The notes under the pieces were generated by a model. The model was not told the origin of the DNA, did no database searches, and worked only from the letters and a program-made list of their open reading frames with translations. Below, piece after piece: positions 15,209 through 59,876 of a stretch of 64,000 bases of DNA. The stretch is from Carcharhinus amblyrhynchos (Eukaryota): contig OZ336903.1 in assembly GCA_965287045.1 (NCBI GenBank), forward strand, positions 1,302,001 through 1,366,000, read 5' to 3'. The position numbers and the translations under genes were made by a program. Numbering within the stretch: the stretch's first letter is position 1; each line of letters starts with the position of its first letter.

Positions 15209-15250
15209 GAACTCCCACACTCAAGTCGTCTCATTGCAACTTATTGGAAA

Positions 15251-16281
15251 ATGGGGAAAGTGCTGTGCATAATATTTGGTGTCTTGCTGCTGGTGCAGGA
15301 AAGTGCTGTCCAAGAAGCCCGCGTCTACGCTCTTGAAGAAGACGGTCAGTATATCTCATGGTTGCCAAAATACGGATGTTCCTACTCTGCATTGTAACGC
15401 GCTTTTTTTAATACAACTTTCTATCACTCGTATCTATCACTGGTTTGGATCTCAGATCTGGCAAATGTCACCGCTTTATTCCTGCCAAAATCTGAATGAT
15501 TTAAGTTTAAATTCAAACAATGTTCTTCAGCTTTATTTTTGTCGTCCGTCCTATTCCCATACACATCCCCCCCACCCACCCGCCCCTCCTCCCCCCTTCC
15601 CCCCCACCCACCCGCCTCTCCTCGCGCCCCCCCCCCCCCTCCCCCACCCTCCTCCACAATCTTCACATCTTTATCTCCTAAAAGGTTACCAGGCACAAAA
15701 TTTTCACAGAACTCTGCTCTCCAAAAATAATCAGCCGAATCTCATCACTTCCTCCAAGGCGAACTTACTTTCTCCAGTTCCCTCACTGCTCCTCACTGAT
15801 ACTTGATTTCAAATCTTATCACATAATTATTCCAAAGTGCATTATTATAAGAAAGTCACTAATAAATCTAATCAGGTGTACAAACGAAAAATAAATAAAT
15901 ATAAAGTGAACGGAATTTTTAACTCACTGACACCAGCAATGATTTTTTTTTTGAACAATGAATGTAAACGTTAGAGGAAGCTCGTTTAGCACTTGAAGGA
16001 GAAAGATAATTTTGTAAGATTGTATTTTTACAACCGCCCTCAACTGCATGTAACAAAACCGCCTCGGATTGCTGATGTTCTCATGTCTACCGTCTATTTC
16101 ATCACCCATAAATGCAGACCAAATATTCCTCTTTTGTTTTGTTTCAGAGGCGAGGTTCAGATGCAGAATACTTGGAGGGGTCTGCCGATATGGAAGCTGC
16201 GCACCGGACCGGGTTCTTCCGGTTTCTAATCTGTGTTGGTATGGCCAACACTGCTGCGCGGATCCAGCACTTTTGCAATGA
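15251..16281 (+). CDS. Beta-defensin-like gene A, join(15251..15344,16148..16281), 75 aa
   Basis: MGKVLCIIFGVLLLVQESAVQEARVYALEED|EARFRCRILGGVCRYGSCAPDRVLPVSNLCWYGQHCCADPALLQ*; G|gtcagt donor, ttttgtttcag acceptor, phase-1 intron, C-x6-C-x4-C-x11-C-x5-CC, AATAAA at 16385. Confidence 0.85.
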
Positions 16282-16489
16282 AATATTTGAATTGTAATCG
16301 TTTCCTTAGCAGCCAGCTTCAAATCGGCCGTCCTTTCATTGTGGCTGCAACAGATCTCTGCATTTCAGAATTATAAAATATATCAATAAAACTCACTGGA
16401 CTGATCACCGATTATTGTGCAGATCTGGTTTCTCATCCGGTTTCTATATTCCTGCATTAACACAAAGGGAAAATATATCAGAAAATGTC

Positions 16490-18300
16490 ACACTGGGGAC
16501 ATAGATTCATTCAGTGAAGAAACGGCCTTCAGGCGACCACTTCTGCTCCATAAATATCGATCACTAATGGCAAAGTAAACATATTTCTCTGTACTTATCC
16601 CATATTATTGAATAGTAAAACAATTCAAGCCCATTCAAATCCGTTTTAAGCTTGGAAATGTTATGACCTTGCCGACCTTCCCAGGCAGTTTATTCTAATT
16701 TCACATTACATTTTGAGTGAAGAAGTTGCCTTTTCTCAAATCTCATCTGAGTCTCGTGGCCCTCATCCTAAAAGTATGCGCCTTCATTATTCACCCCTCA
16801 ACCAAGGGAACCGGTGTTTTTTCATTCATCCTCTCTATACCCCTATAATCCTATCACCTAAACCATGCCTCCCTGAAAGTTATTTGCTCTAAACAAAGGA
16901 ATATAGAAAACAGAAGCAAGAATTATCAATTTGGTATTTTGAACCTATCCTCCCAATCATCTTGATCACGGCTGTTCATCAAGTTCAATATCCTGACCCC
17001 CACCCTCCCTACTATATCCATTGAGCCCGTGAGATCAAGAGGTACACCAAATTTATTATTCAAAACACACAACTGTTGGGCCCGACTACTTTTGTAGTAG
17101 TAAATTTCATCGGCTCGTCACTGGCTCTGGTCGATTATTTTCAGCTCACCTCAGTTCTAAAAGTTTTATCCTTTCTCTGAAAATTACGTAACCATTTTTC
17201 GACATCCAACCAATTGGAACATTCTTTGTGATTCTGCCCTGTCCAATCCCGTTGGAATTTTATGCGTTTCTACAAATCTCCCCTCACTCTGCTAACCACC
17301 AGTAAAAACAATCCTCACCGAGGAGTATCTTCTCATATGACAGACCTGCCATCCCAGGAACCAGCCTGGTAAACCTTCGCCGTACTCCCTCTATATCAAG
17401 GGCATCGTTCCTCAGGTAAGGATACCGAATTCAGGATATGGCCTCAAAAATGCCCTGCACAATGTTAATGAAATATCCCCATTGTTATACTCAAATCCTC
17501 TTGCTATTAAGTCCAACATACCATTTTCCTCTGTTACTGTCTGCTGTAGCTGCGAGCTTCCGTTCAGATAAATAATTTAAAGACAATGAAATTCAATCCT
17601 TTTAAAAAAAAAACAAGCAATGCCAACTCACTTGTTCAAATGCTCCATCCCAGGCAGCATTCTGGTAAATGTCCTCTCTACAGCCTCCAGTGTTACCACA
17701 TATTTCCGGGAGTGAGGTGACCAGAATTGCACACAGTATTCCAGCTCTCATTCGCCATTCCCTCATTTTGTTTCTCCTCCAACAGTGATCTTGTCACACT
17801 GATCAGAGAGAAATCAATCTGTCACTGCTCTGCCATTCTAACCATCCAATCATTATCAGCTTTTAATCAATAAACACTCTCCAAAGCATAGTGTCATCTG
17901 CAAACGTGTTAATTGTTCTCCCGTACCACATTACTATCCATGTTGCTATGAATATAATAAACTAGAAACGTTCCAGTGCTGATCATTATAACTTTGGATA
18001 CCGGAATGCCGTCCATCGAACAGCCTCACACCATAATACTTTGAGTCCCAATAGTAAGCCAGTTTCTAATCCAGCTCGCCAAGTTTCCCCAAATTACACT
18101 GGCTTTAGCCTTTTCAATCAATCTCCCAAGTCGGAACTTGACAAATATTTTGCAAAGATCCACAAAACTATAAGAACTGAACTTCCCTTGACCACACACA
18201 AAAAAAAATCGACCAAAATTGTTCGGCATGACATCCATCTGACAAAACCATACTGGATATTTATTATTAACTGATGTACTTCCAACTGAATATTCATCTT
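16490..18300 (-). mobile_element. Nested degenerate CR1 LINE fragments (paralog about 60090-61830)
   Basis: RT-like text in ORF 18026-18238 (VDLCKIFVKFRLGRLIEK...LASWIRNWL) and typical CR1 3' sequences. Confidence 0.7.
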
Positions 18301-18479
18301 TTAAACAAAGCGCATTTTGGAAGTTCGAAATGACAGAACTCTTAGAAACATTAACAGATTAAACCGGGACTGCAAGCCAACAGTTTCCTGAAAGTGGCAG
18401 CAGGAGAGGGGCACTTGGCCAAGAAAATGCGTGTCATGCCAGCCTTTATCTGTCGGTGTCTGGAGTATAAGAATTTTGC

Positions 18480-19010
18480 AGCTAGTTTGAACTTTAATCA
18501 GATAGGGAACACAGAGTACAGTTCTGTTTGGCACACGATAGGATGTGATGGATCTGGATAGGGTACAGAAAACATTTAACAGTTATCTGCTTTGGATGGT
18601 GTTAGCTGCGAGGAGAGTTTGGGCAGAGATTGTTCGATTTCACTTGAACTTTGGAGAATTGGGTATCTGATCGAACTTTGCAAAATGAAGAGAGTCGTGG
18701 ATAAAATGGACAGTCGAACTCGTTTTCCAGGGGGAAAGAAAAAACGCCAATTATTAGGGTACCAAAGTTGAAGGCGAAATGGTGAATGCTTGAAGGAAAT
18801 GTAACAGGTAATTTCATTACACGGGGGAGGGGGAGAGGGTAGGTTCTTGAATGTATGGTCAGTGGAGGTTGTAGGAACAGATTCAATAACAACGTTTAAC
18901 AGGAGTATTGACGGTTACATGAATAGAACAAAGAACAAAAACAGCCCGGGAAAGAGGCTCTTCGGCCCAACGATCCCTTGGCGCCATTTTAACATGGCCA
19001 GTCCCCCCTT
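18480..19010 (+). mobile_element. Degenerate CR1 LINE 3' fragment (paralog about 62000-62540)
   Basis: gagtacagttctg...gggtacagaaaacatttaac...ctcgttttccaggg CR1 signature. Confidence 0.65.
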
Positions 19011-19199
19011 CATCCATGACCCATGATCGGGTGTTCCGGTTTCCTCCCATATTAAGACGTGCGGTTTCGATGCATTGACCTGGACAGGCGCCCCACTGTG
19101 GCGATGAGAGGGATTTCACAGTAACTTCATCAATCAATAAACTGAACTAATGTGTTAAAGATGTTTATTTTTCGAGGTGCGAGAATTATTGGCAAATTG

Positions 19200-20110
19200 A
19201 ACCTTTATTATGGATCAATAATTACCCTTGGAAAGATGGTGATCAGTTTCCTTCACTGCGTACAGTCCAGTGTAGGCTGCTAACACATTCATCGTGTTGT
19301 TAGAAAGTGATTGGATTGATTTGGGTCCATCAACACTGACAGAATGGTGATATGGATGAGTTTCAATGCTCTGGTTTTGACAGATCAGCAGAGGCTCAGA
19401 ATGAATCAGACATTCTTAAAGCTCTGTTACTAGAAATGTTGAAAAATGTGAGTCATTCTGGAAGATCTGTGAAATGTGAGTAAATATTATTGCATTTGGA
19501 AATATATATGTCGTTCAGCAATATTTTTATGAGATTTTGTTTGCCTGTGATGGTGTTGTTGTATCGGCTGCCATACACTGCCTATCGCTAACTGCCATTG
19601 AGAATATGTTACGAACTGCTTTCTTGAACTGCTGCAGTCCACATAGTGCAGGTCCTGCTCGGGGTCCGGTTCCGTGATTTTCCCCAGAGCAGCAGTGAAA
19701 GAAATGCATTTTTTTCCACGTCAGGGTTGTGGGTAACTGGGAGAGATAAAGGATTTGTGATGATGTTCTGATATCTCTACCAATTTGTCCATCTAGCTGG
19801 TAGATTTCTCGGTTTGGACTGTGCTGTGGAAGTGACCATGTTGCTTTGCTGCAGTGCATCTTTTAAACGCTGCACACTGCAGGCAATGGGACGGGATGAG
19901 TGGAGAATCGATTTCATCGACGGCTCGTCACTCAAGCTTGCCAATTTTTTCATGGATGATGCCAAGCTTTCTGAGTGCTGTGCAAATTGGGATAGATTAG
20001 GTAGAAGGCTGTGCATGTTTGGTTGTCGGCGAGTTTTCTTTTTGACGTTTGCTTGTTTAGATCAGAATAATATCAGGAAGAATAGGGTTTCTGAATGGAT
20101 TGCTTGCTGT
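19200..20110 (-). mobile_element. Degenerate LINE fragments
   Basis: Contains reverse-complement matches to the LINE 3' sequence seen at 2530-2945. Confidence 0.45.
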
Positions 20111-20762: not shown

Positions 20763-20768
20763 TTTATT
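20763..20768 (-). terminator. Polyadenylation signal of the SRCR gene
   Basis: AATAAA about 350 nt after the stop; conserved in the orphan paralog UTRs. Confidence 0.6.
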
Positions 20769-21119
20769 TAATGGTATAAGAAGGAAAGTTTTTACAAAGT
20801 AATTTTCAAATGCACTTGGCAAATATTTCATCAAATTTTGAATCATAATAATGGCTCCGTTCCACAATGCAATGCGATGTAACAGCTTTAATATGGACAG
20901 TGCAATGCTAGAAATTCATTCTACGTTGTTTTTCATTGTTCATTGAACGGAACGTTTCTTTTTTCATGCAAAGCAAAGAGAGAAATCATAATTCATTAAG
21001 CATAACATGAAGTAATGTCCAATTAATTTTACACAACAGCAACATTTATATCTGGAGTTACAGCATATTCAACATGGCGATATTTGTGGAAAAGTGAAGG
21101 GGCGTCCCCTTTAAATAAG

Positions 21120-24100: not shown

Positions 24101-27100
24101 ACTATCTGGTTGATGTTTAACTTCATTTTACCCGACATATTGAGTTTAAATTCACGCCACATACTTTTTGGATGCTGGCAACAGGACAGAAAATACACAG
24201 AAAGTATTAGACAAAGTCAGCAGGAGTGGCAATGAAGAAAGGTCATTGACACGCACTGTTGGACTTGTTTATCTCTCCAGCACTTCTGAGATATCCAACA
24301 TTTCTCTCTCTTTTGGTTACTCTAGAAATGAATTATTGTGTTTGTTTTCACTTCACTCAACATTTTTTTTTTAACATTCTGCATCAAATCATTTTTGGAC
24401 CATTGCCTTTTAGTACATTTTCTGAGCTACTTCGTTTATTTTGCACTCCACTGTAATACGTAGAATTTCATTTCTTTCTCAACGTGTTTGAATTTGTCTG
24501 ATGCTTTTGTTGAGTTTCATTTATCAATCGTATGACTTTCACAGGAAGTGTGTTTACTTTCACTAGTAAATTGCTTCAGCACTTGTCTGACCACCAAAAT
24601 TTACTACCACTGTTAAAATGTGATGGTAAACCTTAAGTTATTGCAATAAATCATAAACATGTGATCTCAGTACCCATTTGTGTAGAACACCAGTTATAAT
24701 CTTCTTCCGCCTATAGAAACATTTACCCCATAAATTCGTAGATTACTACAGCAAACTGGTTCTAATTTTAAGTTTGCTCCATGATTCTGTACACACCTAG
24801 AAAACACTTATATATAGTGCAATTTACTGCTTATCTGATTAATTCTCCTTTGCGATGTATGTTTTAAGTGCATTCACTATCACAAAGTGTAAAAGCAGAA
24901 GACATTTTGGGTGCTGCACTATTTCACTGTAAATGACAACAAAGTAATAGAAACAAAACACATGGAAATTTTCTCAAGGGGTGAAATAGTGCTCAGGTCG
25001 ACCCTCAATAGAATATTGGCCATGGATGACAGTTCCTATGAAATGTCATATCACCGATAGTACAACACCTTCTCAGCACTGCAAATCGTGTCAGACTTGA
25101 TTCAGTGGACCGAGCTCTGGAATGGAACTTGGACCTGGAAACATCTGAGTCAGAGGCATGATTACCATGGACTAAAATGGAGCTGACCGGTATATTCTGT
25201 TCCCATTCATTTGTGTATGAGTTTGTTGTTTCACAAACGAATTTTGGACAACTGGAATGCATTTATGGTGTTAATCATAATTGTCCAGTTGCCATTTGTA
25301 CGATTTTCACGCTTTTATGATGTGAGAGATCCAGTAATGAAAGGTGTACTGATTGTTCTTTATAATTTATAATTTTTGACATGCAGATATTTTTTCCCTC
25401 ACTCTGTCGGAATTGGATTAATGTCCCTGCTAATAAATTTCAGCAGATTGATGTATACTTTCCAAAACACTCTCCTTTTCCCTTTCTGATCACGGTGTCA
25501 ATATTTGTTCTCCATCAGTAGTGTGGAATTACACTCCTTACTAATGATTCAGTGAAAAATTGGAATGGTCCCTCTGCTAGAATTTTCTTTGAAAATGCAT
25601 GGATGAAAAAAAAAATGATCTTAATGTGTTTGGTGCAAATGGCTCTTTTTTTTGTAAATCTACCATCACTATTTAAATCCTCTGCCGTCACATGTTTAAG
25701 TGTTATCATGATACAATCTGCAGAAAAAAAGTTTAATATTTCTGCCATTTCAACATTTTTGATTGCTATTAAAACAGTCCTTGTCGAAAGCACGTGAAGT
25801 ATCTCTGAATTGCCAAAATTATTTCTGCTTTCATTGTATACTGTATTATTTTATTTAACAACCTATGAATCACTGTTTTAATCGTCTTTGCCAACTTACC
25901 TAATTGTGTTCTCTCCCCTTCCCTGTTCGTCACCTCCCTTACCCTGGATTGCTGCCCACAAAATACAACACTTCCCCCCGCCACCTCCCCCAAACCCCAC
26001 CCTCTCCAAACGCGCTATCCTTTTTTCTTCCTGCTTTGCACGTGTTTGCATTGGTTTCTTTTTTTCTTGTTGTTCTATGAAAATATATGTTGTCCTTGCT
26101 TCGGCTGAAAGTCATTTTAAGACTTTCAATATAAGGGGAAAAAAAAACCTTATTGTACTCCAGGCATTTCTTCAGATAACACTGTTTCTGTAATTCAATA
26201 TCAGCAGTAATGTTATCAATTGATTTATGTTCAATCAAACAGTGTATCCATGATGATTTAAAACTGAACCTTGATGGTCGAAAGGAGTAGCCTATTTGGA
26301 ATTTGGAAACAACTAATCTGCTCGCTATTTTTACACAGGTGACAAAAAACCCTCTTCAACAGTAACGGAGAATGGAAATCTATTCAAACCTCTTAATCCT
26401 CTAAAACCTACTGATGCTTTGTGACAATTCTCCTTTCCATTTCAAGGATGAGGAAATCGTGTTATCAACCAATCAGTGCACTGACGGTTACGGGAGGGAA
26501 ACCTGAAGTTTTCAGTGTCCATTGAGTTTGAAATGAAATAAAAATACGAACCTGAGACACGGGAATGAGTGGAAACATTGCCAGGCGGAATGTCATCTAT
26601 TTCTTCATAAATGGCTTGGTTCAAACCAGAAGGTGGATCCCTGACGCCAGTCGAAGGTCCTGATGCAGGGGGATTGAGACTGTTAGTATATTGCTACATT
26701 TACAATGAGAAATATAGTTCCTCGATGGCACTGATTTCACATCTCACTATTTGCTGAGGCAAAAAAATGATGGTCTGGAGAGGTTCTCCTTGTTACTCTG
26801 GATCATGAATAAAGTGATGATATCACTGCCTCATCACAACGGGAACTGAATCATTTTCAGCCAATATAGTCACAAATAACATATCGGTCAAGAATACTCG
26901 GTGCGTGTTCAGATAGAGGCTGTAATTTTGTTTATCTCCTGAAAACTAGTGGTACACAAGGCAATATTTCACCAAATTCCTTAAACACGTTTTAATATCG
27001 AACAGATCGCCATCTTGCCAGCAGAACAAATATGAATCTATCCTTCCCCCACTGCCTGACATTATTGCCTTGGAAGTACTTTGCAGGAAGCCTGAAGTCT

Positions 27101-30100
27101 CAGGACCCAAAACTGAAGCTTCTGCCTCAGAAAGAGTGAAGCTACTCACTGTGCATCCAGTATTGAACCTGCAATTCTCCAGTTTTGGCTGTGCTGAGGT
27201 GCAGAATTTGCACCGATGGTTGGGGAAATTCATTTCAAATAGTGTCACATCGCATCTCAAAATGGATCGAATTCGGTTCAAGAGGTTAACACTGGACATA
27301 AATCGGGAAGCACAGGTTTGCAACAGATAGTAAATTGAACTGAAATATAAGTTGCCAAATATTTACTAGTCTCAAAGTGCAAAGTGTTTGAATTCTATTT
27401 TTTGGATTATTTTTAGAACAATGAAACGCATTTCGAGGCTCAAGAATGAGTGGATAAACCAGGAATAGAAATGTGGATAAATCCCTCACTTAAATTTTAT
27501 ATTTCTCTCTTTCTCAAGCAGCTTGGAAGAAAGCATTAGCTGGATAATTTGTTTCTTCTATGGACAGGAGACATTCCGCGGGAACCAACGTAGCCCTCGG
27601 GGCTTTGAAACAGTTATTGATGTTTCAGTGTAAGTTCAGGGATATGATTCGAGCCTTACCTTTCATTGTTGATCTCCTCCTCATTACTGCCAAAAGGGCG
27701 ATTAATTCACAGACCAACAAGACACCGAGTGATATGCAGATCACCAGAGGGATGGAAGTGTTTTCATCATCATGATCTAACGAAATATTCAAGAAAGTAT
27801 TTTCAGGTCAAGTTCCACATTGTTTCTTAATGCTTACATGATTATCAATTGACAAAACGAAGCCAATGTTAACATGTCCCAGTTATGCATCTTAACATAA
27901 AATTAACATGAGTAGTTAATACCATTTATTAATAAGAAATACTTGAAGGTGTTAGTGATAAATCCGGACCTGATGAAAATACGGGAAACAAGACACAATT
28001 ATTTGGAGTGATGGTTAGAAAGACATCTGAAAACATGATTCAAATTCAGGAAACAAGGACGGACCACCGTCACACAGTCCCAAACCACACCGCTCAGTGG
28101 GACACTTACCAGAACAAATCACACTGGCATCTTCCTTGTGATCACAGTCAGACTGAGCTAATGATGAAAAAGGACAGTCAAACAGAAAGGATTCACTTCC
28201 GGTGCATTTCACCTCATCCAGCCAGATAGTACCGTTACCCTGGACAAAGGCGGCCCCTCCTGTGGCCTCGAGAGCAGAGTCACAGCCCAGCTGTCTGCAG
28301 ACAACACTGGCATCGTTCATATCCCAGGAATCATCACACACCGTGCCCCAGGCTCCATTACACCATATCTCCACTCTCCCGGAGCAATTCGTGATACCCC
28401 CAGCCAAACGCACATTTTGTCCTAAATTGGTCAAAAAAAAATATCAGTCATGGCATAGCACAAATGACGAATCAAATGCATTTTGTAAATTAAGAATGTG
28501 AAATCACCTGATTCTGGTTTGCAGCCGTTGAGATTTTCCTGCTCTTGTTTCGGTTTATGTCCCCCTGTTGATAGGACAAACATGTTGACTCCATGAGCTA
28601 CACCAATATTTCAAATCACACCTGTAAGCAGAATGATTGATTGTGTCACCTGAACAAACGACACCTGCATCTTCCCAATGATCACAGTTGTGTTGACCCA
28701 CGGGTCTGCCTGGCACTGCCAAAGGGTCGACTCGTGTGAAAGGCATTCCATCTCATCCAACCAAATCGGTCCTGATCCTACTCCGAATGAACCAGCATAA
28801 TAGTCTATGGAAACGAGTGTGCCGCAATCTAACTGTTTACAGATCACTGCTGCATCATGCCGATCCAGTTTCTCCGAGCAAACTGTTCCCCATGTCCCAT
28901 TATAGAGCACCTCCACTCTCCCCTCACAGCGATGTGTTCCCTTCACCAAACGCAGCTCTTTGTGCTCTGTCAATGAGATATGAAATATCCAGTTGATTCA
29001 ATGATCAATTCTGTATTCAGAGTGCAATGTATCACATATGTTGTGTCAGTTAAATTCATTGTTTACCGGTATTAATTTACAACGGTCACAGAAAAAAAAT
29101 ACACAACTGAAATCAAACGATATAACCACGAGTAAGCAACATTGAATTTCAATCGAAATATTTGTGTGATGGGGAAAAAGAGGAGTTTTTATGCTAATTA
29201 GGGAGAGTTTGGTAAGTAGATCTCTGGATACATGTGACATAAAGGGTTAAAAATGCACTGACATAGGAAATGAATGACAAAGAGAAAGAAGGGGACACAT
29301 CAAGACAGAGTGGACCACTCATTTGTCAATATTTCAGTCCAGAACAAATAACACAAACAGGGTTTGGCCGAATGACCTTCGTAACCGCTGTTCACCTGCT
29401 ATTCAGGAATATATCTGACTTATGAAGTTTCATTAATAACTGCAGAAAATGGGATCATTACCAGAGCACATGATGTTCACATCTTCTTTATGATTACAGT
29501 CGTGTTTACCCCACAGTGCATGGGGACATTCCCAGAGAAATGATTCATTCCCAGTACATTGCAGCTCATCCAACCAAATTGGGTCTGTGTCTGGTCCAGT
29601 CGAAGTGGGAAGAGGAAGCTGCAATGCATTTCCACAACCCAACTGTTTGCAAACCACATCCGCGTCTTTCAGATCCCAGGAATCATCACAAACTGAGCCC
29701 CAGATCCCATTGTGATAGATCTCCAATCTCCCAGCACATCGGCTTCCACCACCAGAGAGCCTTAACTGCCTATGTCCTAATAGAAAATATACAGTGTCAT
29801 GTTATACTTTCAATGCATTAACCTCACTGCTAAATTGAAACTACTGGATAATATAGATCTAAATGTAAACCTATATGTTAGGTGGTGTTGACAGTTAAAT
29901 GAATCTATGCAGTAGGACACCTGTTCCATCTTACACAAAATAAGAAAGGTCGTGTATAAATATATATTTCAGGTATTCCTAACAACCTCTCTAACGTTTT
30001 ACGGATTGTATCTAACCCATTCTCAGTGGTATACTTTCCTTTCACACTTAAGAGTGTAATTCTGTTAATTAGCTGTTCCACAAACAATGTTTTAAGCAGC

Positions 30101-33100
30101 TATTTACACTTGTTTTTCAGTATTTTTTTTGCCATGCATTTTTCAACAGGTTTTTGTAGCTCACACTTATGTATTGGACTAATCAGAAAATGCTGCAAAT
30201 ATCAAATAGCTTAGCAGCATCAGAGGGCCACGAAATAGACGTAACCTTTCACATAGCGACCTGTGCTGGAAATTGCTGCTAAAATCTCCAGAAGCCCCCT
30301 TGTTTACTCAATGAATTCAACTTCAAAAGCATCTAAAAACGTGAATGCAATCAAAACATTTCTAAATAATCGTGCACCTTCTAGTTCAGCAGCAGGGACC
30401 CACCACTCGTACAGACCTGAACTCACTCCCACCCGCTCCCCTCCTACACCACCACCAGCCCTGACTCTTTGATCTTCATCGGATTCTCTTCAGTCAATAA
30501 ACAAAGCGTCAAAATATCATGGCCATTTTCAAAGACATCATTTCTCTCCACCACTGATCCTGCCCCAACAGATCAAGCCCACCAGCCCAAGCGTCCATGA
30601 TAACCAGCGCCAATGAATCCACTTAAGGGTTTCGATTTCCGTCACATCTGATACTTTTTTTTTGCAGCAAACCTTTCTACATCCTTGTTTAATGGTCATG
30701 ATATTAACGAAAGGGATACAGTATTGGAATTCCAGCTTCAAACCTCCACCTCCTCTCTGCTTTCTCCTTGTCTGTTGAAACCCACTCCTCTGATCAATAC
30801 ATTAGTCCCTCTTGCCGATTTAAACTTTATTTTTGTTGGTCTCAATTTACCGCCGGAAATTACCCAGAAATGAGCAAAATTGTTTAATGTGTCAAAATAG
30901 TTCAAACGAACTATGAGTTCACCCCCCCCACGCCCCCCCCCCCACCCCCCGATGACGTCCTGTTTTGCATAGCCGCGTCATTGTCGAACATCTCATCTAC
31001 GTTCTCCCCAGGGAAAAAAATGAATTATATTCCCCGTTGACCAAGATTATATTTTTCCCTTTTTCAGTTCTGGAAAAGTGACCTGTTTATTCACCTGAGC
31101 ACAGAACCCCTACGCCGATGCTGTCACTGCGATGCGGGTTCAATGTGAATGTGCTGCACTTCCGGAGATGCGATTCGTTTCCTTCACACCGGACATCATT
31201 CACCCACACAGGCCCTTCACCCTCTCCGTACTTTGAATTGGTATAGGCGGTTACCGCTTCGCCGCAGCCCAGCTGTCTACAGGTCACATTAGCGTCATTC
31301 AGATCCCAGAGGCTGTCCTGCACTCTGCCCCAGCTGTGGTTGGAGTAAATCTCCACTCGCCCATCACACCGACTTCCCCCATTCATCAATCTCAGTGACC
31401 AGTTTTCATCTAGGGATATAAAGACATGGAGAACGGTGGTTACAGTGCAGCAAATTATATCAAATTGATATTGCCTCCCACCAGAGCAGCTCCCTCGGTG
31501 CAGAGGTGAAGGATGTGGTGAGAGGCTGCTGAGCACAGTCAGACAGGAGGCTGAACACCCAGCGTGGCTGCTCTGAATCTGAAGCAAATATATTGATAGA
31601 CAGATGGATAGATAATGAATGCGTATGGACTTCGAGGATGGGCCAACATTTGGGCGGTCAAATATAGAAATATCCTCTTTAATCCCAGCACAACTTGTTT
31701 TCATTCCCTTGATTTAGGGACTCACCCGAGCAGATGACACTGGCGTCATTTCCATGTGAGCAGTTAAACTCTTCCACGGATGAAACCGGACACTCCCACA
31801 ACCAGGACTCGTTCCCGCGGCAGTTGTAGTTCTCCTTCCATATTGTCCCATTTCCCTTCCCAAAGGCTGCTCCTCTCGGGATTTTCTCTACCACTCCACA
31901 CTGAAGATGCTCACAGACCACACTGGCGTCTTCTGACTCAAAGTAAACATCACAGAGCGTCCCCCAGTGCTCTCCATGCCGCACTTCCACCCGGCCGGAG
32001 CACCTGTCCTTTCCACCAACCAATCTCGGCCCAGGGTTTTCTGTTTCAGGAATAAGCAAAGACCCAAATAATTTATACATCGAAATTTGCAGAACACACG
32101 CCAGTTTATTTTTGTTAACGGGAATACACACTTCATACTGGCATTCATAATCATTGCCCAATAACCATAAAAGATCACATCGAACTAATTAATACAATTT
32201 GTGATGCTTTTAGGAAGGCGCTTCAACCCAAACAGAGCAGTCCATGCTGAAGAGAAAAGCTAATGTGTCATTGGCAGTATATACTGTTTTTCGGCCAGAT
32301 CCAGTATCTATTTTAAATAAAATGCACTGTGTTTAAGCATTGCATTATGATGCGATTATTAAAAAATCTATATCTTCTGGAGCAATAAGCTGACCATAAA
32401 ATGGTAAGTGCACCTCTAAAATTAGTCAGAATCTCGGACCGGCTAATTCAGAAAATAAACGTCTTTCTAAAAATTACTGTGTTATTCTGGAGGGTCTGCC
32501 CGCCATTGACACGTTATCCATGCTTTGAAACCTCCTCTAGACATTAGTACATTGTTTTTTCCACCTGAACAGCTGCATGTAAATCGTACCCGTGCAATGC
32601 CTTTACTGAGCTCATTCAAGTCTATACTCACCGGAACAGATCACACTGACGTCGTTCCTGTGGGTGCACTCGGACCGATTTACACGAACAAGGGGACAGT
32701 CTCTCAGGCTTGTCTCGCTGCCATCACATTCAAATCTATCGTTCCATATAAGTCCAACGCCCTCCCCAAAATAAGCCCCTCTTCGAATAGAAACGACCAC
32801 ACCACACTGCAGCTCGGCACAGATCACTGTGGCGGTATTCCAATCCAAGTCACGGTCACACACTGTACCAGATTCTCTATCGTTATGGATCTCCAATCTG
32901 CCGGAGCATGGGACAGCTCCGGATACTAGTTTTGGAAATCTGTGGGCTGAACAACACGAAAACATTAAAAAAAATATTATTATCAAAATATATTTACACG
33001 CCGGTAATTAGATTATATCATGATTGGCTCTGAATGTTGTTCCCCTTAGTTACCCCCTTATCTAAAAGTGGAATTGTCGAGTCAAAAACGTGGGATACGA

Positions 33101-36100
33101 CCTGGATTAAATCCTCTGTCGGTGATACTCAACGGGCTGAATGCCCTTCTTCTGCAATAAGAAGTTCTATAACTAAAGATTTTTCATCAAGTTCAATAGG
33201 TGTCAACTGTTACTCTCTCCAGAAGCCGAATTCATTCTTACAGCGAGTCCCCTGGAACACTCTTCCCCCAACTCCCGATAAATTCAACCAACTGCTGGTT
33301 TATCTGAATAAATTCTGAGTACAACTGCCCCCTACCGCCTGTTGATGGGAAATATCACAAAGCGCAACAAGCGGACCTGAATCAATACATGGGATTATTT
33401 ACCCAGGGACGTTCTAACTGATCAGCATCAAACAAAATTCTATATTTGTTTTTCGGCGCTGAAACGTGTTGGGAATGAACGGTCTGAAAGGACTTCAACA
33501 AGAAATGAAACAGTGGATCCCGGAATGTCGAAATGGTGATTAGCAATCTATACTCGAGCTTTATTCAGCGTCTATGAGCACAGGTCACAAAATGTGAAGC
33601 CAGATGCAAAGCATAATCAAAAATCCTCCTGGAGTAATAGCATTTCTATTTTGAGGCTGGAACATGAAGGGGGAGAGTTTCTGCTTCAAGTTTCAGTAAC
33701 TTTGCTCGGTCTATAGCTGGAATGCGACAAACAATTTAGGGAACGGCAACCCTGTAAGGATCTCCTGTTCTGGAAACCAGTCCAGTGAGAGTCTCCCAGG
33801 CTACTGGTTACTGAGTCTAGACAACATCTCCTTCTATCAGTTTACACTGTGTGAAATCTGCCTGAAACTGCAGTAGCTTTAAATATTAAAACAACTAATC
33901 TCCATTCGTTTTATTCTGGAGAAAGTATCGACTGCCGCACATTTGTTTAAAATACAACCTCCTGAACAAATTGATCCAGCACAATTTATTCAAATACAAC
34001 AGAACACTCCACCAATAACATTTCTGATCTCTCTCCCTGACAGACTCCAAAGGTAAACTCCGTCCGAAAAAAAACAAGAGGGGAAATCATATAGGAACAT
34101 TTGGTATTCATCAGATTTAGGGAGTGAGAGGGAGATAAGTTTCCAAATAGTATCAAACATTTTGAGAAGAGGATTTACATGGCAGCTATTAAAACGACAC
34201 GCCTGGAAAGACAGGGGATACCCAGCCAGTCCCCTCTCACACAAAATCAGAACATGTTGGAGCAATTCAGCAGCTGTGGCGGAATTAGTGGCGAGGGAAG
34301 AATAGAGGGAAGTTTCCAGTCCGCATGACTCTCCTCCAGACCCTTCCCATCCTCACTCCGCCCTTGGAACACCTTCAATCTGTCCACTGATTGCTGCTCT
34401 GAAAGTAGCCGCAGTGACTGGATAAGCGCTCTATGGCCTCCGCAATCAATAGTCAGTAAATGTCAAACACATGGACCGAGACACCCGGATTTAATTCAGA
34501 GACAGCCCCAATTCTGACGGAGTGCCGAATGATCCGGACTCCGCTTAAATGTACCTCTGTACATAGCCAGCCGATCAAAACATGTCTGACCTTTTGAGTC
34601 TGCACAGGCAAGACCGGGACAGATTAGTCCGCCCGGGACTCTTTCTCGCTCTCCTCCCAGGTCTTTCCGTCCGCCATCTCCCCCTCCCCCCCGCCCCTCC
34701 CCGCCCCCGTGGTTGCTGACAGGTCCTTCTATGTCTCCAGGCGTGTGGTTGAGTCCGTTGAGACATTGGGGGAGGGGAAGTGCTGGAGAGCGCGAAGGGT
34801 TGGGAGATCGGGATGACTCTGACCGTATCTCTGGGGGTCGAAACACATTTTCATCTGAGGGGACAATTTCTGGACTCCGATGCAAGACATAGCACAAAAA
34901 AGGGCGACTTGGATTTAAGCTGAAATAAAGCTAACGGTGCGGACAGATGAAGATAAACGGTTGCTGGGCAGAAACCTAATTGTTGTCCAGGATTTGCTCT
35001 ATGTGGCCCTGGAATGATTCATTATTTGTTGAATGGTGATTGGAACTGAACAGTGAGGAACCAGGAGCGAACAACTCCTCTCCTGAACACAGCTAACAGC
35101 AAGAGCTCAGCTCAAGGACACAGCGGGCCTGTGCACGGTTGTGGTAATTGTTAATCACTCTCACTGCTGTTACTTTATTATAAACTTAAATCCGGGTGTT
35201 AATGTATCAACACTTCTATTTACAGAATATTGAAATTATTCACCATTCTCCTTGCGACTGTGGGCAGTCTCAGCATAATTGATCCGCCCTTTCCCAGACA
35301 GCAGGGTATAGATGATTGACAGATTTGTTTCTTTTACCTGAGCAAATCACGCCGGCATCATAGGAGTGCGAAACGCGACGATGACGCCATGTCACTGAGC
35401 GACATTCCCGCAGGGCGGTCTCGGTCCCTTCACACTCAACATCATACGTCACAATGGGTCGGGCTCCTCCCCCAAAGTGAGCCCCGCCTGGTGCAGAGAC
35501 CGCGGTTCCGCAGCCCAGCTCCCCACACACAACATCGGCTTCCCGCTGGTCCCAGTCCCTACCATACACAGTGCCCCACTGTCCCCTGTAGTGAATCTCC
35601 ACTCTCCCAGCGCACCGACTCTGCCCATTCGCCAGCCTCAGCTTCACCGACTCTGTAAAATACAGAAATAAACCAACAGTTATTGGCCAGCTGATGCAGC
35701 AGGTCAGAGAGGAATCAAGCCAAATAGGAAGTGTGTCTAAGATCTCAATAAACACGGGGATAACATGAAATAAAGAACGACGAACAAAGACACTGACAGC
35801 ACAGGAACAGGCCCTTCCGCCCTCCTTGCCTGTACCGACCTGACTAACCGACTGAACTAAAAAACCCTACCGCTCTGGGGACCATATTCCTCTATTCCCA
35901 CCCTATTTATTCACTTATCAAGACGCCCCTTAAACGTCAGTACGGTATCCGCTTCCACTCCCTCCCCCTGAGACATTACAAGTGGAAGCGGGAATATGGA
36001 TTGACAGTGGGAAACATCCGCAAATCAGTTAGAAGTTGGAAACATCATTCGGCTGCGTCAGGCAGGAGTGTGGATGGGTGCTTACTTGATTCAATCCGCA

Positions 36101-44384: not shown

Positions 44385-45610
44385 TGTCTTTTGTCATTCA
44401 GTGTCTGACGCCTGGCTGGACTCACTCTGTCCTTTCAGGTTCAGTGTCACAGACCTGGCTGGGTTCGATCTGTTATTCGAGATTCAGTGTCACAGGCCTG
44501 TCTGGGTTCGATCTGTTATTTGAGATGCGAATCTCATGCCCGGCAGGTTTGAGGCTGTTCTTTGAGATTCTCTGTCATCGGCCTTCGTTGGTTCACTCTT
44601 TCCTTAAATTCAGTGTCACAGATCTGGCTGGATCCACTGTGTCCTCTCAGATTCAGTGTTGCAGGCCTGGTTCTGTTCAATCTGTCATCTCAGATTCAGT
44701 GTCACAGGCCTGGTTGTATTCACACTGTCCTTTGAGATTCAGTGTCACGGGCCTGGCTGGGTTCACTCTGCCTTTTTAATACAGTGTCACTGAACTGGCT
44801 GGGATCACTGTGTCCTTTCCAGTTTGAGTGTCACAGGTCTGGCTGTATACATTGTATCCTTTGACATTCAGTGTCACAGGCCTGGCTGTGCTCGAAATGT
44901 TATTTGAGATTCAAGCTCTCAGACCTGACAGTGTTCACTCTGTCCATTGAGATTCAGTGTCAGACGCCTGGTTGGGATCAATGTGCTCCTTGAGATTCAA
45001 TGTTACAGGCCTGGCTGGTTTCACTGCGCCCTTTCAGATTCAGTGTCACAGGCCTGGCTGGTTTCACTGCGCCCTTTCAGATTCAGTGTCACAGGCCTGG
45101 CTGGTTTCACTGCGCCCTTTCAGATTCAGTGTCACAGGCCTGGCTGGGATCCGTTCATCTGTTGAGATTCAGTTTCCCAGGCCTGGCTGTCTTCAAACTG
45201 TTACTTGTGATTCAGTGTCACAGACCTGGTGTATACACTGTGTCCTTTGAGATTCAGTCTCACAGGCCTGGCAGGATTCACTCTGCCATTTGAGATTCAG
45301 TGTTACAGGTCTGGCAGGAATCACTGTGTATTTTGAGATTCAGTGTCACAGGCCTGGCTGCGTTTGAAATGTTATTTGAGATTTAGCGTCACAGACTGGG
45401 CTGGGTTCTCTCTGTTCTTTGAGATTCAGTGTCATAGATTTGGCTGTGTTCACTCTGCCCTTTCAGTTTCAGTGTCACGGGCCTGTTTGTGTTCACTGGA
45501 TCTTTTATATTTGAGCATCAGAGGCCTGGCTGGGTTCACTCCGTCCTTTGAGATTTAGTGCCACATGCCTGGCTCGGTTCACTGTGTTATTTGAGGTTCA
45601 GTGTCACAGG
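44385..45610. repeat. 43-bp minisatellite (roughly 28 units), paralog of 7930-9375
   Basis: Same unit; includes three identical consecutive units at about 45006-45140. Confidence 0.9.
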
Positions 45611-45619
45611 CTGGACTGG

Positions 45620-46990
45620 AGATGGAGAGAGTGTGGTGGCTTACTGAGTGCATTGAGACAGCATCACTACCTGATGGAGAGTCAGGTGGCTGAGTGCACT
45701 GAGACAGCATCACCAGCAGATATAGTGTGAGGTGGATCACTGAGTGCAGTGAGATAACATCAACAGCGGATGGAGAGAGTGGGGGGTAACTGAGTGCAGT
45801 GAGACAGCATTAACAGCAAATGGAGAGATGGGTCAATGAGTGCATTGAGTCAGCATCACCAGTAGATGGAGACGGTGAGTATTTTATACTGAATGTGGTA
45901 AGACAGGGACACCAGCAGATGGAGACAGTGAGGGGTAACTGAGAGGACATGGACTGATTGTTGTAATGTGATAAACAAGAAGGATGTTTGTGGGATGTGG
46001 CAGGTCACAGGTTGGGAGTTGAAACTGGGTAAACAGAAGGATAGCAGCAGGATGTGTGAGGTCACAGACTGGTGAAGTGTAGCAGTAAATGAGGGTGTAG
46101 GGTAGATTTTGGAGGACACAGACAATGTGGTGAAATGTGGAGATGACTCAGGATAGCAGAAGTCCTTCTTAGTACAAAGAAATATTGTTGATTTGTAGAT
46201 AGCAGTGAGGATAATAACAGTGTTTGAGGCACACAGAGAGATGTGTGAGAAGAAGAAACAGTGAGGATAACAGTTGGATATGAGAGGACACAGGTAGATT
46301 GGTGAGACATAGTTAGCAGTATGGATAATAGCAGGGTTTGGGATGCCAGACAGATTGCTGAAATTGAGTAAATAATGATGATTATCATCCAATTTGGGAG
46401 GACACAGAGAAATGGGAGAAAGGCAATAGCAGTGAGAGTGACAACAGGAATTGGCAGGACACAGACAGAATGGTGAAATGTTGTAATGAGTGAGGATAGA
46501 GCTAGGATTCTGGAAGACAGGCAGTTTCCTTTAACCTATCAAAGAATAAGGACAACAGGAGGATTTGTCAGGATTTCAAATGTTGGGGATGTATCCAGGC
46601 TTTCAGTGGACACTGACTGATTGGATATCAGTAAGCTTCACTGATTGGATATCAGTAAGCAGTGAGGATATCAATTAGCTTTTGGAGGATCGGGATCCGT
46701 GTTGAAAAGTAGTAAACAACGTGGACAACAGGAGGTTTCAGGGGTGTCAGGCAGAATGGTGAAATGTAATAAACATTGTGGATAAAAACAGTGTTTCGGA
46801 GAACATGCACGGCTTGGTGAAATGTTGGAAAGAGTGACGGTAGAGGCACAACTTAGGAAGCTAATGAGAGATTGTGAGGATAACAACAGGATTTCGAAGA
46901 GGCAGGAAATGGGTGAAATGCACTAAACTGTGCGGATACTGGAGGATTTGAATGTTAAGGGTAGTGCTGGAATGAAACATGGTTCTGCAT
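45620..46990. repeat. Degenerate purine-rich minisatellites
   Basis: Paralog of 9380-10560. Confidence 0.65.
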
Positions 46991-53962: not shown

Positions 53963-56336
53963 TTCTGGGGGCTTAACTCCAGAGACAGGCCAGTGAATAA
54001 ACACAGGAGGCCCCAATGACGTTCGTACTTCTATCAGTCACCTCCCCCGCCCCCCTCTGTTTCTCCCTCTCCGTCTCTTCCACACTTCCCCAGATCGTTA
54101 TCTGTCCAATATTCCATCTCTGCTCCTGGCTCTCGATAACCTGTCCGGATATCTGCTCTGGTTTTCTATCTCAAGGTGAATCTGGATTGAAATTCTCTCT
54201 CTCTAAGTTTCTGTCAGATCTTTCAAAATAATAATCACAATCAAAAAAGAGAGGGGGCGAGGGCAAGAAAATCCACAATCCCATCCTGAAGAGGCTGCTG
54301 CACATTTTGTTGAACCATTGAATTCAGTCACTTCAACCCTGTTGGGGAATTAAGCGAATGTAAAAGTGTTCCTGAGATTAAGACAGTGAAGTGCGGCCTA
54401 ATTACAGAGGCTGCATTATTCCACAGGTAGAAAGAACAGATCCCCCTCCCTCCCCCCCAGTTAAACAGAACAATATTTTTTTCTTCCACATCCACAAACG
54501 CCAGCGCCCTGCCTAAAAACACAAGGAGGATTCTGGGACTGAGAACAATCCTTTCCCGCAGGCTCAGGAATTTGAATTTCAGCTCCCTCTCCCGCCCGAG
54601 TGCTTTATAGTGAGAGGGAGAAAGAGAGACTGGGAATGCTGCAATCAGGATCCACAGGGATTTGAACACTCCAGGAGGAAACAATTCACCCCCAGAGCCT
54701 CCGTCTCTTTCCCGCACCATCTCCACTGAGCCCCTGACATTTCCCAATCCTACTCTGTTCAACCTGTCAAGTGTGATTGATCCATAATGGAACCAATACA
54801 TCCATCGACGATTCCGCGAGATATTTTGAACCATCAGTGATACATTTTAGGCAGAATTTGCAACCCAATCTGCTCTGATATCGCTCATTGTGCAATTAAC
54901 TATGCGACAATGCATCAATGATTCAATGAAGAGAGTGTCAACGCCTGTTGTGAGCAGAAGCAGATGTATCTAATTTGAAATAATAACCTATTGATGGCCC
55001 AACAAGGAGAATACAACAGGTGCAGGACTGTGAAGGAAGTCAAAAATAATCAACGCAAATCATTGCCAATGACACCAGAGTCGATCTATATTTTGCAGTC
55101 CCGACTCACCCAAACATGAGTACGGGTTGGCAATTCAACAACCATCTGGGGGAGGAGGCTCCACAATGGTGTGACAGGCCCGCATGCGAATATAATGGAG
55201 GAGGCTAAATCATCGCAGATAATCTACAGGCAGAAATGTTAGTTTGATGTTTCACCTTAGTTTCATGTGTTCAGCATACCAGCCTTCAGCCATTTTACCC
55301 CCGTCCACGTGATATCAAGGAACGACTGAAGGTGCTGGAAAATGACCAGTCATTAATGCAGATTATCCAAAGCCAATAGTGTGGAGTTTGTGTTGTTTTC
55401 ACACAGACAGGTGATCCCACTGATCACAAATAAGAGGACTCATTTCTGGCAGTTAGCTAAAGTTCAACAGGCAGGGTAACGGCAGGGCACCAGGCACCAG
55501 AGGCAAATATTCAACACATTACCCACTGCTGCATTCAGAATTATTGAAACATCTGAATTGAAAGAGAATTTTGCATGATGAGGACAGAGAGAGTTGATAT
55601 CAGAGTAAGGTAGTGACAGGAGTGAGGGAAGAAAGAAACACATATTATGGAACACAGGAAAATAGGGAGGGAGAAAAATAACAAAAAAAATCCTGAACGC
55701 AGGTAGGGTAGTCAAGAATGGGGAAATAGTGCAATTAGAGATATGTAAGGGCACTAATGATAAAAACTGACGACTTTAATTTACATAACGCATTTTACAC
55801 ACTCAGAATATCCCCTAGAGAATCATTGCCAATGCTAAAACTGCCATCAATGAAATAACATCCAAAGTGTTGCAGGGAATTGAGCACAAACAAACATGGC
55901 ACGTATTACAAACTATCCGTTTATTTAATCTTTTCCAGTGGGTTTGTCAGTGAATAGCGATGTCTTAGCATAACGATTCCTCACAACAGACACACAATAT
56001 GTTGGAGAGTGGAAGATTAACCAACCACTACAACAATGACGAAAATAAGTGACAAAGTAACCAGTGGGCAAGTTAACCTTGCAAATTATTTGCATTTTAT
56101 TGAGTCTCCGGTTCAATCATTTACCCGATTTTCTTTTTTAAGTTTGTGATCAGTAACCTGTATCGGAGAACACATTTAATCTCTGATCACAGGAACTGTT
56201 TGTCTGTGAGCGGTTCTTCAGTGAGAAGCAACTTGGAACCAATCCCCACATTATGTGAGTGAACAGCTTAATATTTGACACGTCTCAATATAAAGAACTC
56301 CCATACTCAAGTCATCTCATTGCAACTCATTGGAAA

Positions 56337-57332
56337 ATGGGGAAAGCGCTGTGCATAGTATTTGGTGTCTTGCTGCTGGTGCAGGAAATTGCTGTCCACG
56401 ACGTACAATTCTACCCTACTGAAGAAGAAGGTCAGTGTATCTTATGGTTGCCAAAATACGGTTGTTCTTACTCTGCATTGTAACGCTTTTTTTTATATAC
56501 AACGTTCTATCACAAGTATATATCACTGGTTTGGTTCTCAGATCTGGCAAATGTCACCGCTTTATTCCTGCCAAAAATTGAATGATTTAATTTTACATTC
56601 AACAATGTTATTTAGCTTTCCTTTTGTCCTCCGTCCTATCCCCGCACCACCGCCGCACCGCCCCCCTCCCCCCGCAACCCACTCCACGATTTTCAGATCT
56701 TTATCTCCTAAATGGTTACCAGACCGAAAATTTTCAGAGAACTCTGCTCTCCAAAAATAGTCAGCCGAATCTCATCACTTCATCCAAGGTGAATTTACCT
56801 TCTCCTTCTTGGGCTCAAATTCTGGAGTTCCCTCACTGCCCCTCACTGACACTTGATTTCAAATCTTATCACATAATTAACTCCATAGTGCTTTACTGTA
56901 AGAAAGTCACGAATAAATCCAATCAGGTGTACAAACGAATAAATATTAAATATAAAGTGAAGGGAATTTATAACTCACTGTCACCAGCAATGATTTTTTT
57001 TGAATAATGAAGATCAATGTTGGATGAAGCTCATTGAGCACATTAAGGCGAATGGCAATTTTGTAAGATTGTATTTTTACAACCGCCCTCATCTGCATGT
57101 TACAAAACCGCCTCGGATTGCTGATGTTCTCACGTCGACCGTCTATTTCATCACCCATAAATGCAGACCAATAAATTCCTCTTTTGTTTTTGTTTCAGTG
57201 GCGAGGTTCGGATGCGTAATACTTGGTGGGATGTGCCAATATGAACCCTGCGCAACGGATCGGGTTCAACTGGCTTCTAAACTGTGTTGGTATGGCCGAC
57301 ACTGCTGCGCGGATCCAGCACTTTTTAAATGA
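56337..57332 (+). CDS. Beta-defensin-like gene B, join(56337..56430,57199..57332), 75 aa
   Basis: MGKALCIVFGVLLLVQEIAVHDVQFYPTEEE|VARFGCVILGGMCQYEPCATDRVQLASKLCWYGRHCCADPALFK*; splice sites intact, TATA at 56289, AATAAA at 57436. Confidence 0.85.
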
Positions 57333-58892
57333 AATATCTGAATTGTAATAGTTTCCTTAGCAACCAGCTTCAAATCGGCCGTCCTTTCATTGTGGCTGCA
57401 ACAGATCTCTGCATTTCAGAATTACAAACTATTTCAATAAAACTCACCGGACTGGTCACCGATAATTGTGCAGATCTGGTTTATTACTCTGGTTTCTCTA
57501 TTCCTGCATTAACACAAAGGGAAAATATATAAGAAAATGTCACACTGGGGACATAGATTCATTCAGTGAAGAAACGGCCTTCAGGCGACCACTTCTGCTC
57601 CATAAATATCGATCACTAATGGCAAAGTAAACATATTTCCGTGTACTTATCCCAGATTATTGAACATTAAAATCATTCAAGACCAATTCAACAACTATCT
57701 GGGGGAGGAGGCTCCACAGTGGTGTGACAGGCCCGCATGTGAATATAATGGAGGAGGTTCAATCATCGCAGATAATCTACAGGCAGAAATGTTGGTTTGA
57801 TGTTTCACATTAGTTTCATGTGTTCAGCATGCCAGTCTTCAGCTATTTTACACCCGTCCACGTGATATCAAGGAACGACTGAAGGTGCTGGAAAATGACC
57901 AGTCATTAATGCAGATTATCCAAAGCCAATAGTGTGGAGTTTGTGTTGTTTTCACACAAACAGCTGATCCCACAGATCACAAATAAGAGGGCTCATTTCT
58001 GGCAGTTAGCTGAAGTTCAACAGGCAGGGTAGCGGCAGGGCACCAGGCACCAGAGGCAAATATTCAACACATTACCCACTGCTGCATCCAGAATTATTGA
58101 TACATCTGGATTGAAAGAGAATTTTGTATGATGAGGACAGAGGGAGTTGATATCAGAGTAAGGTAGCGACATGGGTGAGGGAAGAAGGAAACATATATTA
58201 TGGAACACAGGAAAATAGGGAGATAGGAAAATAATAAAAAAAGAAATCTGAACGTAGGCAGGGCAGTCAAGAATGGGGAAATGGAACAATTAGAGATATG
58301 TAAAAGCACTACTGGTAAAAACTGACGACTTTAATTTGTATAACGCCTTTTACACACTCTGTATATCCCACAGAGAATCATTGCCAATGCGACAATTGCC
58401 ATCAATGAAATAAGATACAAAGTGTTGCAGGGAATACAGCAAAAACAAAAATGGCACATATTACAAACTATCGGGGTATTTAATCGTTTCCAGTGTGTTT
58501 GTCAATAAATAGCGATGTCTGAGCATAACGAATCCTCACAACAGATACACAATATGTTGGAGAGCGGAAGAATAAACAACCACTACAACAATGTCGAAAA
58601 TAAGTGACAAAGTTACCAGTGGACAAGTTAACCTCACAAATTATTTGCATTTTATGATGAGTCTCCGGTTGAATCATTTACCCGATTTTCTTTTTAAGTT
58701 TGTGATCAGTAACCTGCATAAGAGAACACATTTAATCTCTGATCGCAGGAACTGTTTGTCTGTGAGCTGTTCTTCAGTAAGAAGCAACTTGGAGCCAATC
58801 CCCACATTATGTGAGTGAACAGCTTAATATTTAACACGTCTCAATATAAAGAACTCCCATACTCAAGTCATCTCATTACAACTCATTGGAAA

Positions 58893-59876
58893 ATGAGGAA
58901 AGCGCTGTGTATAGTATTTGGTGTATTGCTGCTGTTGCAGGAAATTGCTGTCTCCGTCTACACTCCTGAAGAAGAAGGTCAGTTTATCTTATGGTTGCTA
59001 AAATACGGTTGTTCTTACTCTGCATTGTAACGCTTTTTTTAATACAATTTCCTACCACAAGTATCCATCACTTGTTTGGTTCTCAGATCTGGCAAATGTC
59101 GCCACTTTATTCCTGCCAAAATTTGAATGATTTAATTTTAAATTCAACAATGTTCTTTCGCTTTCTTTTTGTCCTTCGTCCTCCTTCCCCCTCGCCCCTC
59201 ACCCACCCCCCGCCGCCCGCCGACCCCCCTCCACGATCTTCACATTTTTATCTCCGAAAGGGTTACCAGACCCAATTTTTTCAGACAACTCTGCTCTCCA
59301 AAAATAACCAGCCGAGTCTCATCACTTCACCCAAGGGGAATTTACCTTCTCCTTCTTGGGCTCAAGTTCTGGAGTTCCCTCACTGCTCCTCACTGATACT
59401 TGATTTCAAATCTTATCACATAATTAACTCCATAGTGCATTATTATAAGAAAATCACTAATAAATCCAATCAGGTGTACAAACGAAGAAATATTAAATAT
59501 AAAGTGAAGGGAATTTATAACTCACTGTCACCAGCAATGATTTTTTTGAATAATGAAGGTAAATTTTAGAGGAAGCTCGTTGAGCACATTAAGGCGAAAG
59601 GCAATTTTGTAAGATTGTATTTTTACAACCGCCCTCATCTGCATGTAACAAAACCGCCTCGGATTGCTGATGTTCTCATGTCTACCGTCTATTTCATAAC
59701 CCACAAATGCAGACAAAAAAATCCTCTTTTGTTTTGTTTCAGTGGAAAGGTTCGGATGCGAATTATTTGGTGGGGTCTGCCAATATGATCCCTGCGCACC
59801 GGACCGGGTTCGACTGTTTTTTAATCTGTGTCGGAGTGGCCAACGCTGCTGCCTGGATCCAGCACTTTTCAAATGA
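58893..59876 (+). CDS. Beta-defensin-like gene C, join(58893..58977,59743..59876), 72 aa
   Basis: MRKALCIVFGVLLLLQEIAVSVYTPEEE|VERFGCELFGGVCQYDPCAPDRVRLFFNLCRSGQRCCLDPALFK*; splice sites intact, TATA at 58845, AATAAA at 59980. Confidence 0.85.

Follow-up and report, generated by a model that had tools for sequence, protein, structure and literature searches.

Beta-defensins are placed "from teleost fish to mammals" in PMC7203481, where a phase-1 intron just 5' of the cysteine region is given as a hallmark common to beta- and big defensins. The cysteine motif of lizard beta-defensins ranges over C-x(6-7)-C-x(3-5)-C-x(8-14)-C-x(5-7)-CC (PMC12278569). Teleost beta-defensins are encoded by three-exon genes, of which a species has about 2-7, a group in the olive flounder combines a pro-region of 5-15 amino acids with an anionic mature peptide, and the ancestral vertebrate gene has been proposed to be two-exon (PMC8231796). 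For chondrichthyans, the only antimicrobials given in PMC6795676 (section 14) are transferrin, squalamine and kenojeinin. Here we describe a family of two-exon genes for beta-defensin-like peptides in the shark Carcharhinus amblyrhynchos, three of which lie in a stretch of 64,000 nucleotides (hereafter the window; positions 1302001-1366000 of the 22.3-Mb contig OZ336903.1, called C34, in a genome of 2.92 Gb; 814 bases of the window are N).

The three window genes are real, intact members of a tandemly amplified two-exon, six-cysteine gene family. A preliminary description, made from the letters of the window alone, had located them exactly, and their frames are open after splicing, with precursors of 75, 75 and 72 amino acids (genes 1, 2 and 3) that consist of a hydrophobic leader and a short acidic stretch, followed across a phase-1 intron by a 43-codon cysteine exon. 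The TATA box, AATAAA, phase-1 GT-AG introns (768 nt in gene 2; for the others see Table 1) and six-cysteine spacing that it listed were each present in all three genes: the spacing is always C-x6-C-x4-C-x11-C-x5-CC, a TATAAA stands 48 nt 5' of every ATG, and an AATAAA follows about 105 nt 3' of every stop. The leader has a basic N-terminus and a clear hydrophobic core (Kyte-Doolittle 9-mer values up to 3.5), with an ambiguous cleavage site. A loose beta-defensin cysteine pattern occurred three times in the six frames of the window, whereas over 100 Markov simulations it averaged 0.03 and never exceeded 1, and no fourth defensin-like copy was found in the readable part of the window.

Table 1. 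Features of the window (numbered from its first letter) and members of the related subfamilies elsewhere in the genome.
Feature	Position	Strand	Remarks
Gene 1, upstream region	14992..15208	+	Putative; octamer-like 8-mer at 14992, ETS-like site at 15104, TATAAA at 15203
Gene 1, exon 1	15251..15344	+	Defensin-like; hydrophobic leader and acidic pro-piece
Gene 1, intron	15345..16147	+	Phase 1, GT-AG, 803 nt; skipped in a relative's contig
Gene 1, exon 2	16148..16281	+	Six-cysteine peptide, net +3; AATAAA at 16385
Gene 2, exon 1	56337..56430	+	TATAAA at 56289
Gene 2, exon 2	57199..57332	+	Net +2; AATAAA at 57436
Gene 3, exon 1	58893..58977	+	Three codons shorter; TATAAA at 58845
Gene 3, intron	58978..59742	+	Phase 1, 765 nt; exactly skipped in a relative's contig (run probably RNA)
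Gene 3, exon 2	59743..59876	+	Net +1; AATAAA at 59980
CD163/WC1/DMBT1-like SRCR gene	26541..35659	-	Lies between genes 1 and 2 and faces genes 2 and 3 head-to-head
Duplicated block, spacer and gene 1	2..19022		80-92% alike to 36594-62564 (spacer and genes 2 and 3)
Group B members (L050-L072, L076)	G000: C49, C82, C200, C36, C651, C86, C491, C400, C9, C56		
Group C members (L077-L080)	C49, C56, C31:25.90 Mb, C23:47.56 Mb		

PF00711, the beta-defensin family, was the only Pfam family matched by the window genes (genes 1 and 3) and was matched by 15 of 32 family members; two relatives from the subfamily called group C below scored above its cut-off (22.2 and 21.9 bits). A profile of the family run against PDB returned beta-defensins in 14 of 14 rows (E 0.016-0.14), and beta-defensin clusters came top by the language-model features of ESM (0.81 and 0.76, scores at the level of leads). 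The fold searches used the AlphaFold2 (AF2) model with a predicted local distance difference test (pLDDT) score of 64.6, not the one with 57.7; in Foldseek, 17 of 20 rows were titled alpha- or beta-defensins, headed by hBD-2 and hBD-1 (E 2.2-3.7), and in VIA-align the top two rows were helianthamide (Z 2.6, root-mean-square deviation 3.4, 39 aligned residues) and a tick carboxypeptidase inhibitor (Z 2.4, 3.0, 38 aligned), with which defensins tie, these Z values being within noise. The matches of both searches are defensins and other small disulfide-rich peptides. The six-cysteine motif lies inside the beta-defensin range, and the phase-1 intron stands 5' of the cysteine module with the leader on a separate exon. 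Alpha-defensins have one residue between Cys1 and Cys2, where the shark peptides have six; the short acidic linker of precursors of 72-75 amino acids, which contain no hydrophobic globular N-terminal domain, also sets them apart from big defensins. Linkage to cathepsin B is typical of amniote beta-defensin clusters without defining them; no cathepsin B synteny was found on C34, the sole match to the cathepsin B propeptide (PF08127, sub-threshold) being on another contig, C12. Because these matches agree, yet are individually weak and below the Pfam cut-off, the genes are filed as beta-defensin-like, beta-defensin being their best match, with a predicted disulfide pairing C1-C5/C2-C4/C3-C6.

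With vertebrate beta-defensins (PF00711; hBD-1/2/3, AvBD3) the family shares Gly-Gly before Cys2, the order of leader exon, phase-1 intron and mature exon, and a tandem cluster with pseudogenes, and it differs from them in its x11/x5 spacing, a conserved Asp-Pro tail, sub-cut-off Pfam scores and interleaving with genes for scavenger receptor cysteine-rich (SRCR) domains. Teleost beta-defensins are likewise six-cysteine host-defence peptides of fish, whereas here we count two exons per gene and at least 41 six-cysteine exons. The cluster of the lizard Podarcis lilfordi (63 genes) has grown comparably by recent tandem duplication, although it occupies one chromosome and is mostly cationic, in contrast to the shark, whose three subfamilies are distributed over several contigs and have SRCR or G-protein-coupled receptor (GPCR) neighbours; 13 of 65 peptides are negative or neutral in a lizard, compared to 11 of 17 anionic here. 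Big defensins also have a phase-1 intron before the cysteine module, and an oyster one's C-terminal domain gave a weak fold match (Z 2.1), whereas only about 10-13 acidic residues stand between leader and cysteine module here.

Splicing was assessed in nine sequencing runs, none of them on record as RNA; two (X1 and X2), nearly identical, from one study and from a related species, were guessed to be RNA. They cover both exons and the 3' untranslated region (UTR). For gene 3, one contig of X1 connects 58977 and 59744, between which one base differs (shorter side 58 letters), a second joins 58974 to 59744 (shorter side 25), and the loose end of a third resembles exon 1 of another paralogue; the joint is absent from X4 and X6, which cover all 30 bins including the intron. 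An exon joint of like kind was found for gene 1 in a contig of the relative, with 27 divergent exon-1 letters between. Run X9, from the same study as X1, has no cover on the gene, which is not evidence of tissue specificity. Because the contigs read past the stop and on into the UTR, a third coding exon is absent; the transcript ends are not fixed because X1 contigs extend up to about 200 nt 5' of the TATA box and 3' of the AATAAA. The homologous genes are spliced as predicted in the related species, which falls short of proving it for the copies in the window: of the junction reads expected by the preliminary description, those of gene 3, at the predicted site, and of the gene 1 type have counterparts in the relative's guessed-RNA contigs.

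The subfamily of the window genes (group A) has 18 strong exon-2 matches on C34, on both strands between 0.25 and 1.75 Mb (about 1.5 Mb near one contig end), and 19 exon-1 matches, the nineteenth locus being an exon-1-only remnant. The six cysteines, spaced 6, 4, 11, 5, are kept in 17 of the 18 copies. Seventeen copies were modelled (L008 was left out because of its GC donor); all 17 models are open and 16 have six invariant cysteines, the broken copy, L016, being without Cys4. An assembly artefact is ruled out for group A by exon-2 DNA sequences that are distinct in 17 of 17 copies and by diverged flanks. L008 (C34, about 570.8 kb) is a paralogue of gene 2, intact apart from its GC donor, and two decayed group A-like exon-2 copies with stops lie outside C34 (L020, C66:39373; L025, C179:188682). 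Group B comprises 24 matches, spread over 10 contigs, of which 20 carry the full motif C-x6-C-x4-C-x10-C-x5-CC and four do not; its peptides are His-rich and follow a different leader with a dibasic site. On small contigs, some of its copies may represent haplotypes that were left uncollapsed (five copies form two identical sets). Group C, a third and short subfamily with four matches, is nearest to the Pfam beta-defensin model; its copies on C31 and C23 lie within 0.2 and 0.8 Mb of contig ends. The three groups together hold at least 41 six-cysteine exons and 37 distinct peptides, both lower bounds. In both regions of C49 that were checked, near-identical single-exon open reading frames for rhodopsin-family GPCRs (L084:8462-9547, plus strand; L086:404-1324, minus strand) lie 9-12 kb from group B defensins, and the two are possibly a second co-duplicated module.

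Homologues were scarce. Exon 2 yielded no candidate when proteins 41-132 amino acids long were searched from word seeds, and with an alignment of 32 sequences none of 2603 candidates among proteins of 84-2000 amino acids scored. A HMMER search with the family profile over 1.84 billion representatives gave four matches, all of them multi-repeat cysteine-rich proteins with scores summed over stretches; the three examined were rejected. An exact look-up of exon peptides returned nothing, which is uninformative because the exons used were partial. The best-looking of the matches, P0004, is a shrimp "PCSK5-like" protein of tandem six-cysteine defensin-like repeats with acidic linkers. No true homologue was thus found among these representatives, although the collection includes chondrichthyan proteomes, and no description of a chondrichthyan defensin was found in the literature searched, an earlier one in a subscription journal being possible. 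The view taken in the preliminary description, of beta-defensin-like, two-exon, spliced and unannotated genes that form a distinct subfamily, is thus supported.

It had also called the mature peptides weakly cationic (+2 to +3). The exon-2 charges of the window genes are in fact +3, +2 and +1, and a positive charge is not typical of the family: among the 17 modelled copies, 11 are negative (-2 to -6), one is zero and five are positive (+1 to +3). With the acidic pro-piece kept, all 17 are anionic (window genes -1.2, -2.1 and -2.3); a dibasic cleavage site is absent from group A and present in group B leaders. There are signs that diversifying selection acts on the mature exon, with a nonsynonymous to synonymous rate ratio (omega) estimated at about 1.9, and the leaders are under purifying selection. 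Across the 17 copies, the proportions of nonsynonymous and synonymous differences (pN and pS) are 0.145 and 0.090 in exon 2, and 0.056 and 0.101 in the leader or signal peptide (pN/pS 0.56), with an intron divergence of 0.089 after removal of a poly-C block. Custom codon-model code, in which branch lengths were rescaled only, gave an M0 omega of 1.92 (twice the log-likelihood difference, 2dlnL, 6.1 and 5.6 against omega = 1) and favoured M2a over M1a (2dlnL 19.6 on the flank tree, 13.3 on the exon tree); sites 6, 20, 23, 25, 27, 33 and 43 were flagged on both trees.

The SRCR gene between genes 1 and 2 has seven SRCR exons (about 35.3-35.7, 32.6-32.9, 31.7-32.0, 31.1-31.4, 29.5-29.8, 28.7-29.0 and 28.1-28.4 kb), a transmembrane exon (27658-27777) and a tail exon with a tyrosine motif (26541-26633), and in this resembles the CD163/CD163L1/WC1 group-B SRCR clusters; the domain at 28.7-29.0 kb is frameshifted (pseudogene or assembly indel). 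For four of six SRCR exons in the window the best of 120 named proteins was chondrichthyan (two skate, two zebra shark), although only four of the 120 were; this bears out the "probable shark" of the preliminary description to the level of a cartilaginous fish. In a survey that scored 150 of 428 candidates, at least 36 matches to the 5'-most SRCR domain, in at least 24 groups, were found on C34 at 0.16-2.05 Mb. In 10 of 13 defensin groups the closest SRCR gene upstream, at a distance of 12-61 kb, lies on the other strand, head-to-head; of the remaining three, two lack SRCR exons within the 40 kb checked, and the third has one, on the same strand. Only group A shows this pairing, as no SRCR exon was found in the 40-kb regions around five group B or C genes. 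Spacer DNA homologous to that of the window recurs 5' of other family copies; the duplication unit is therefore the SRCR 5' end, spacer and defensin, and the SRCR-defensin pairs all descend from a single ancestral arrangement rather than from independent events, which does not imply co-function. To our knowledge, no SRCR cluster with defensin genes in between has been described, and one literature search on CD163/WC1 SRCR genes in shark returned no papers. An octamer-like 8-mer lies 5' of all 17 copies and an ETS-like site 5' of 15, while NF-kB-like sites were found in none of the 17 upstream regions. The first two, which we take to be leukocyte-type sites, hint at leukocyte expression, their conservation saying little as the copies are recent.

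Repeats accompany the block. A 52-bp tandem array of 17.8 copies (window 1284-2211) is presumably SINE-like, and degenerate 43-bp satellite arrays (7900-9370 and 44385-45620) belong to the duplicated spacer and are found on C49 as well. C34 has another SRCR array at 8.52-8.79 Mb, which is very regular, with a period of about 45 kb and near-identical scores.

Taken together, these genes probably encode secreted host-defence peptides with a beta-defensin fold that would use the loop between Cys3 and Cys4 to recognise a variety of targets. The acidic pro-piece would be removed from the secreted precursor, and the mostly acidic peptides would likely bind specific microbial or immune targets rather than lyse membranes by charge, the positively selected loop serving as the putative recognition site; charge-driven lysis would plausibly be confined to a few cationic copies, including the three window genes. 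The family grew by birth-and-death duplication of a block of 20-40 kb that holds an SRCR gene and one or two defensins, facing away from each other. Several points weigh against this interpretation. The Pfam and structure checks proposed in the preliminary description pointed to defensins alone or mainly, but not at significant levels: genes 1 and 3 score 17.1 and 10 bits against a PF00711 cut-off of 21 and gene 2 has no match, both AF2 models are of low confidence with two strands rather than three, and the fold matches are insignificant (Foldseek E > 2, VIA-align Z at most 2.6). The RNA status of X1 and X2 is a guess, for a single study of another species. The codon bootstrap interval of pN-pS spans zero (-0.004 to 0.111), the MG model without kappa (transition bias) is not significant (2dlnL 1.3), and the exon-2 and flank trees differ by 20 log-likelihood units; gene conversion among group A copies is likely, and on account of this conflict may inflate the selection test. 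An anionic charge, finally, is equally well compatible with non-immune roles.

One such role would be in reproduction, as in the analogous epididymal beta-defensins of mammals and the ovodefensins: peptides of the same fold from epididymis, Leydig gland or oviducal gland might coat sperm or egg cases, under sexual or egg-protective selection. A large, fast-evolving and partly anionic cluster would fit this, as would the oviduct expression of the related ovodefensins (PMC12278569), but the neighbours resemble SRCR immune receptors and the upstream motifs (weak evidence) are of leukocyte type, and we consider such a role unlikely. That the peptides are classical cationic membrane-lytic antimicrobials, like most teleost and mammalian beta-defensins, is quite improbable: the five positive copies include all three window genes and an acidic pro-piece could mask charge before cleavage, yet 11 of the 17 copies are negative even without it, group A has no dibasic site for its removal, and salt impairs most human beta-defensins (PMC6805989). 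Toxins, too, typically show accelerated change in the mature exon, and defensin-fold enzyme inhibitors or venom or skin deterrents would be in keeping with the two top VIA-align rows. Snake and platypus venoms offer analogous defensins. We regard this function as very doubtful, as those rows lie within noise, the sequence profile matches beta-defensins only and nothing points to a venomous batoid host. It is extremely improbable that the genes are passengers amplified solely by the duplicating SRCR block, most copies drifting neutrally: copy number does track the shared block with its homologous spacers, overall omega is only moderately above 1 and broken copies occur, but the cysteines and leaders are conserved, several paralogues are spliced in the relative, and groups B and C have expanded or survived with no SRCR genes beside them.

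The host-defence interpretation leaves room for a linkage of defensins and SRCR genes that may be functional or merely historical. There is a small chance that cartilaginous fishes hold a large hidden beta-defensin repertoire (at least 40 genes in this genome) in the ancestral two-exon form, with an acidic, positively selected branch co-amplified and co-regulated head-to-head with CD163/WC1-like SRCR receptors, a paired peptide-receptor recognition module without a described counterpart in other vertebrates. The defensin-SRCR block itself is an unreported genomic arrangement. If the assignment to the beta-defensins is true, these would reach back to the jawed vertebrates' last common ancestor, the proposal of a two-exon ancestral gene (PMC8231796) would be supported, the expansion would match the reptilian ones in size, and a phylogenetic gap in a known peptide family would be filled. 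The 37 distinct natural peptides, many of them anionic, must function in high salt and urea, and such a set of close relatives, with charges that span +3 to -6, would make the mode of action of anionic defensins testable.

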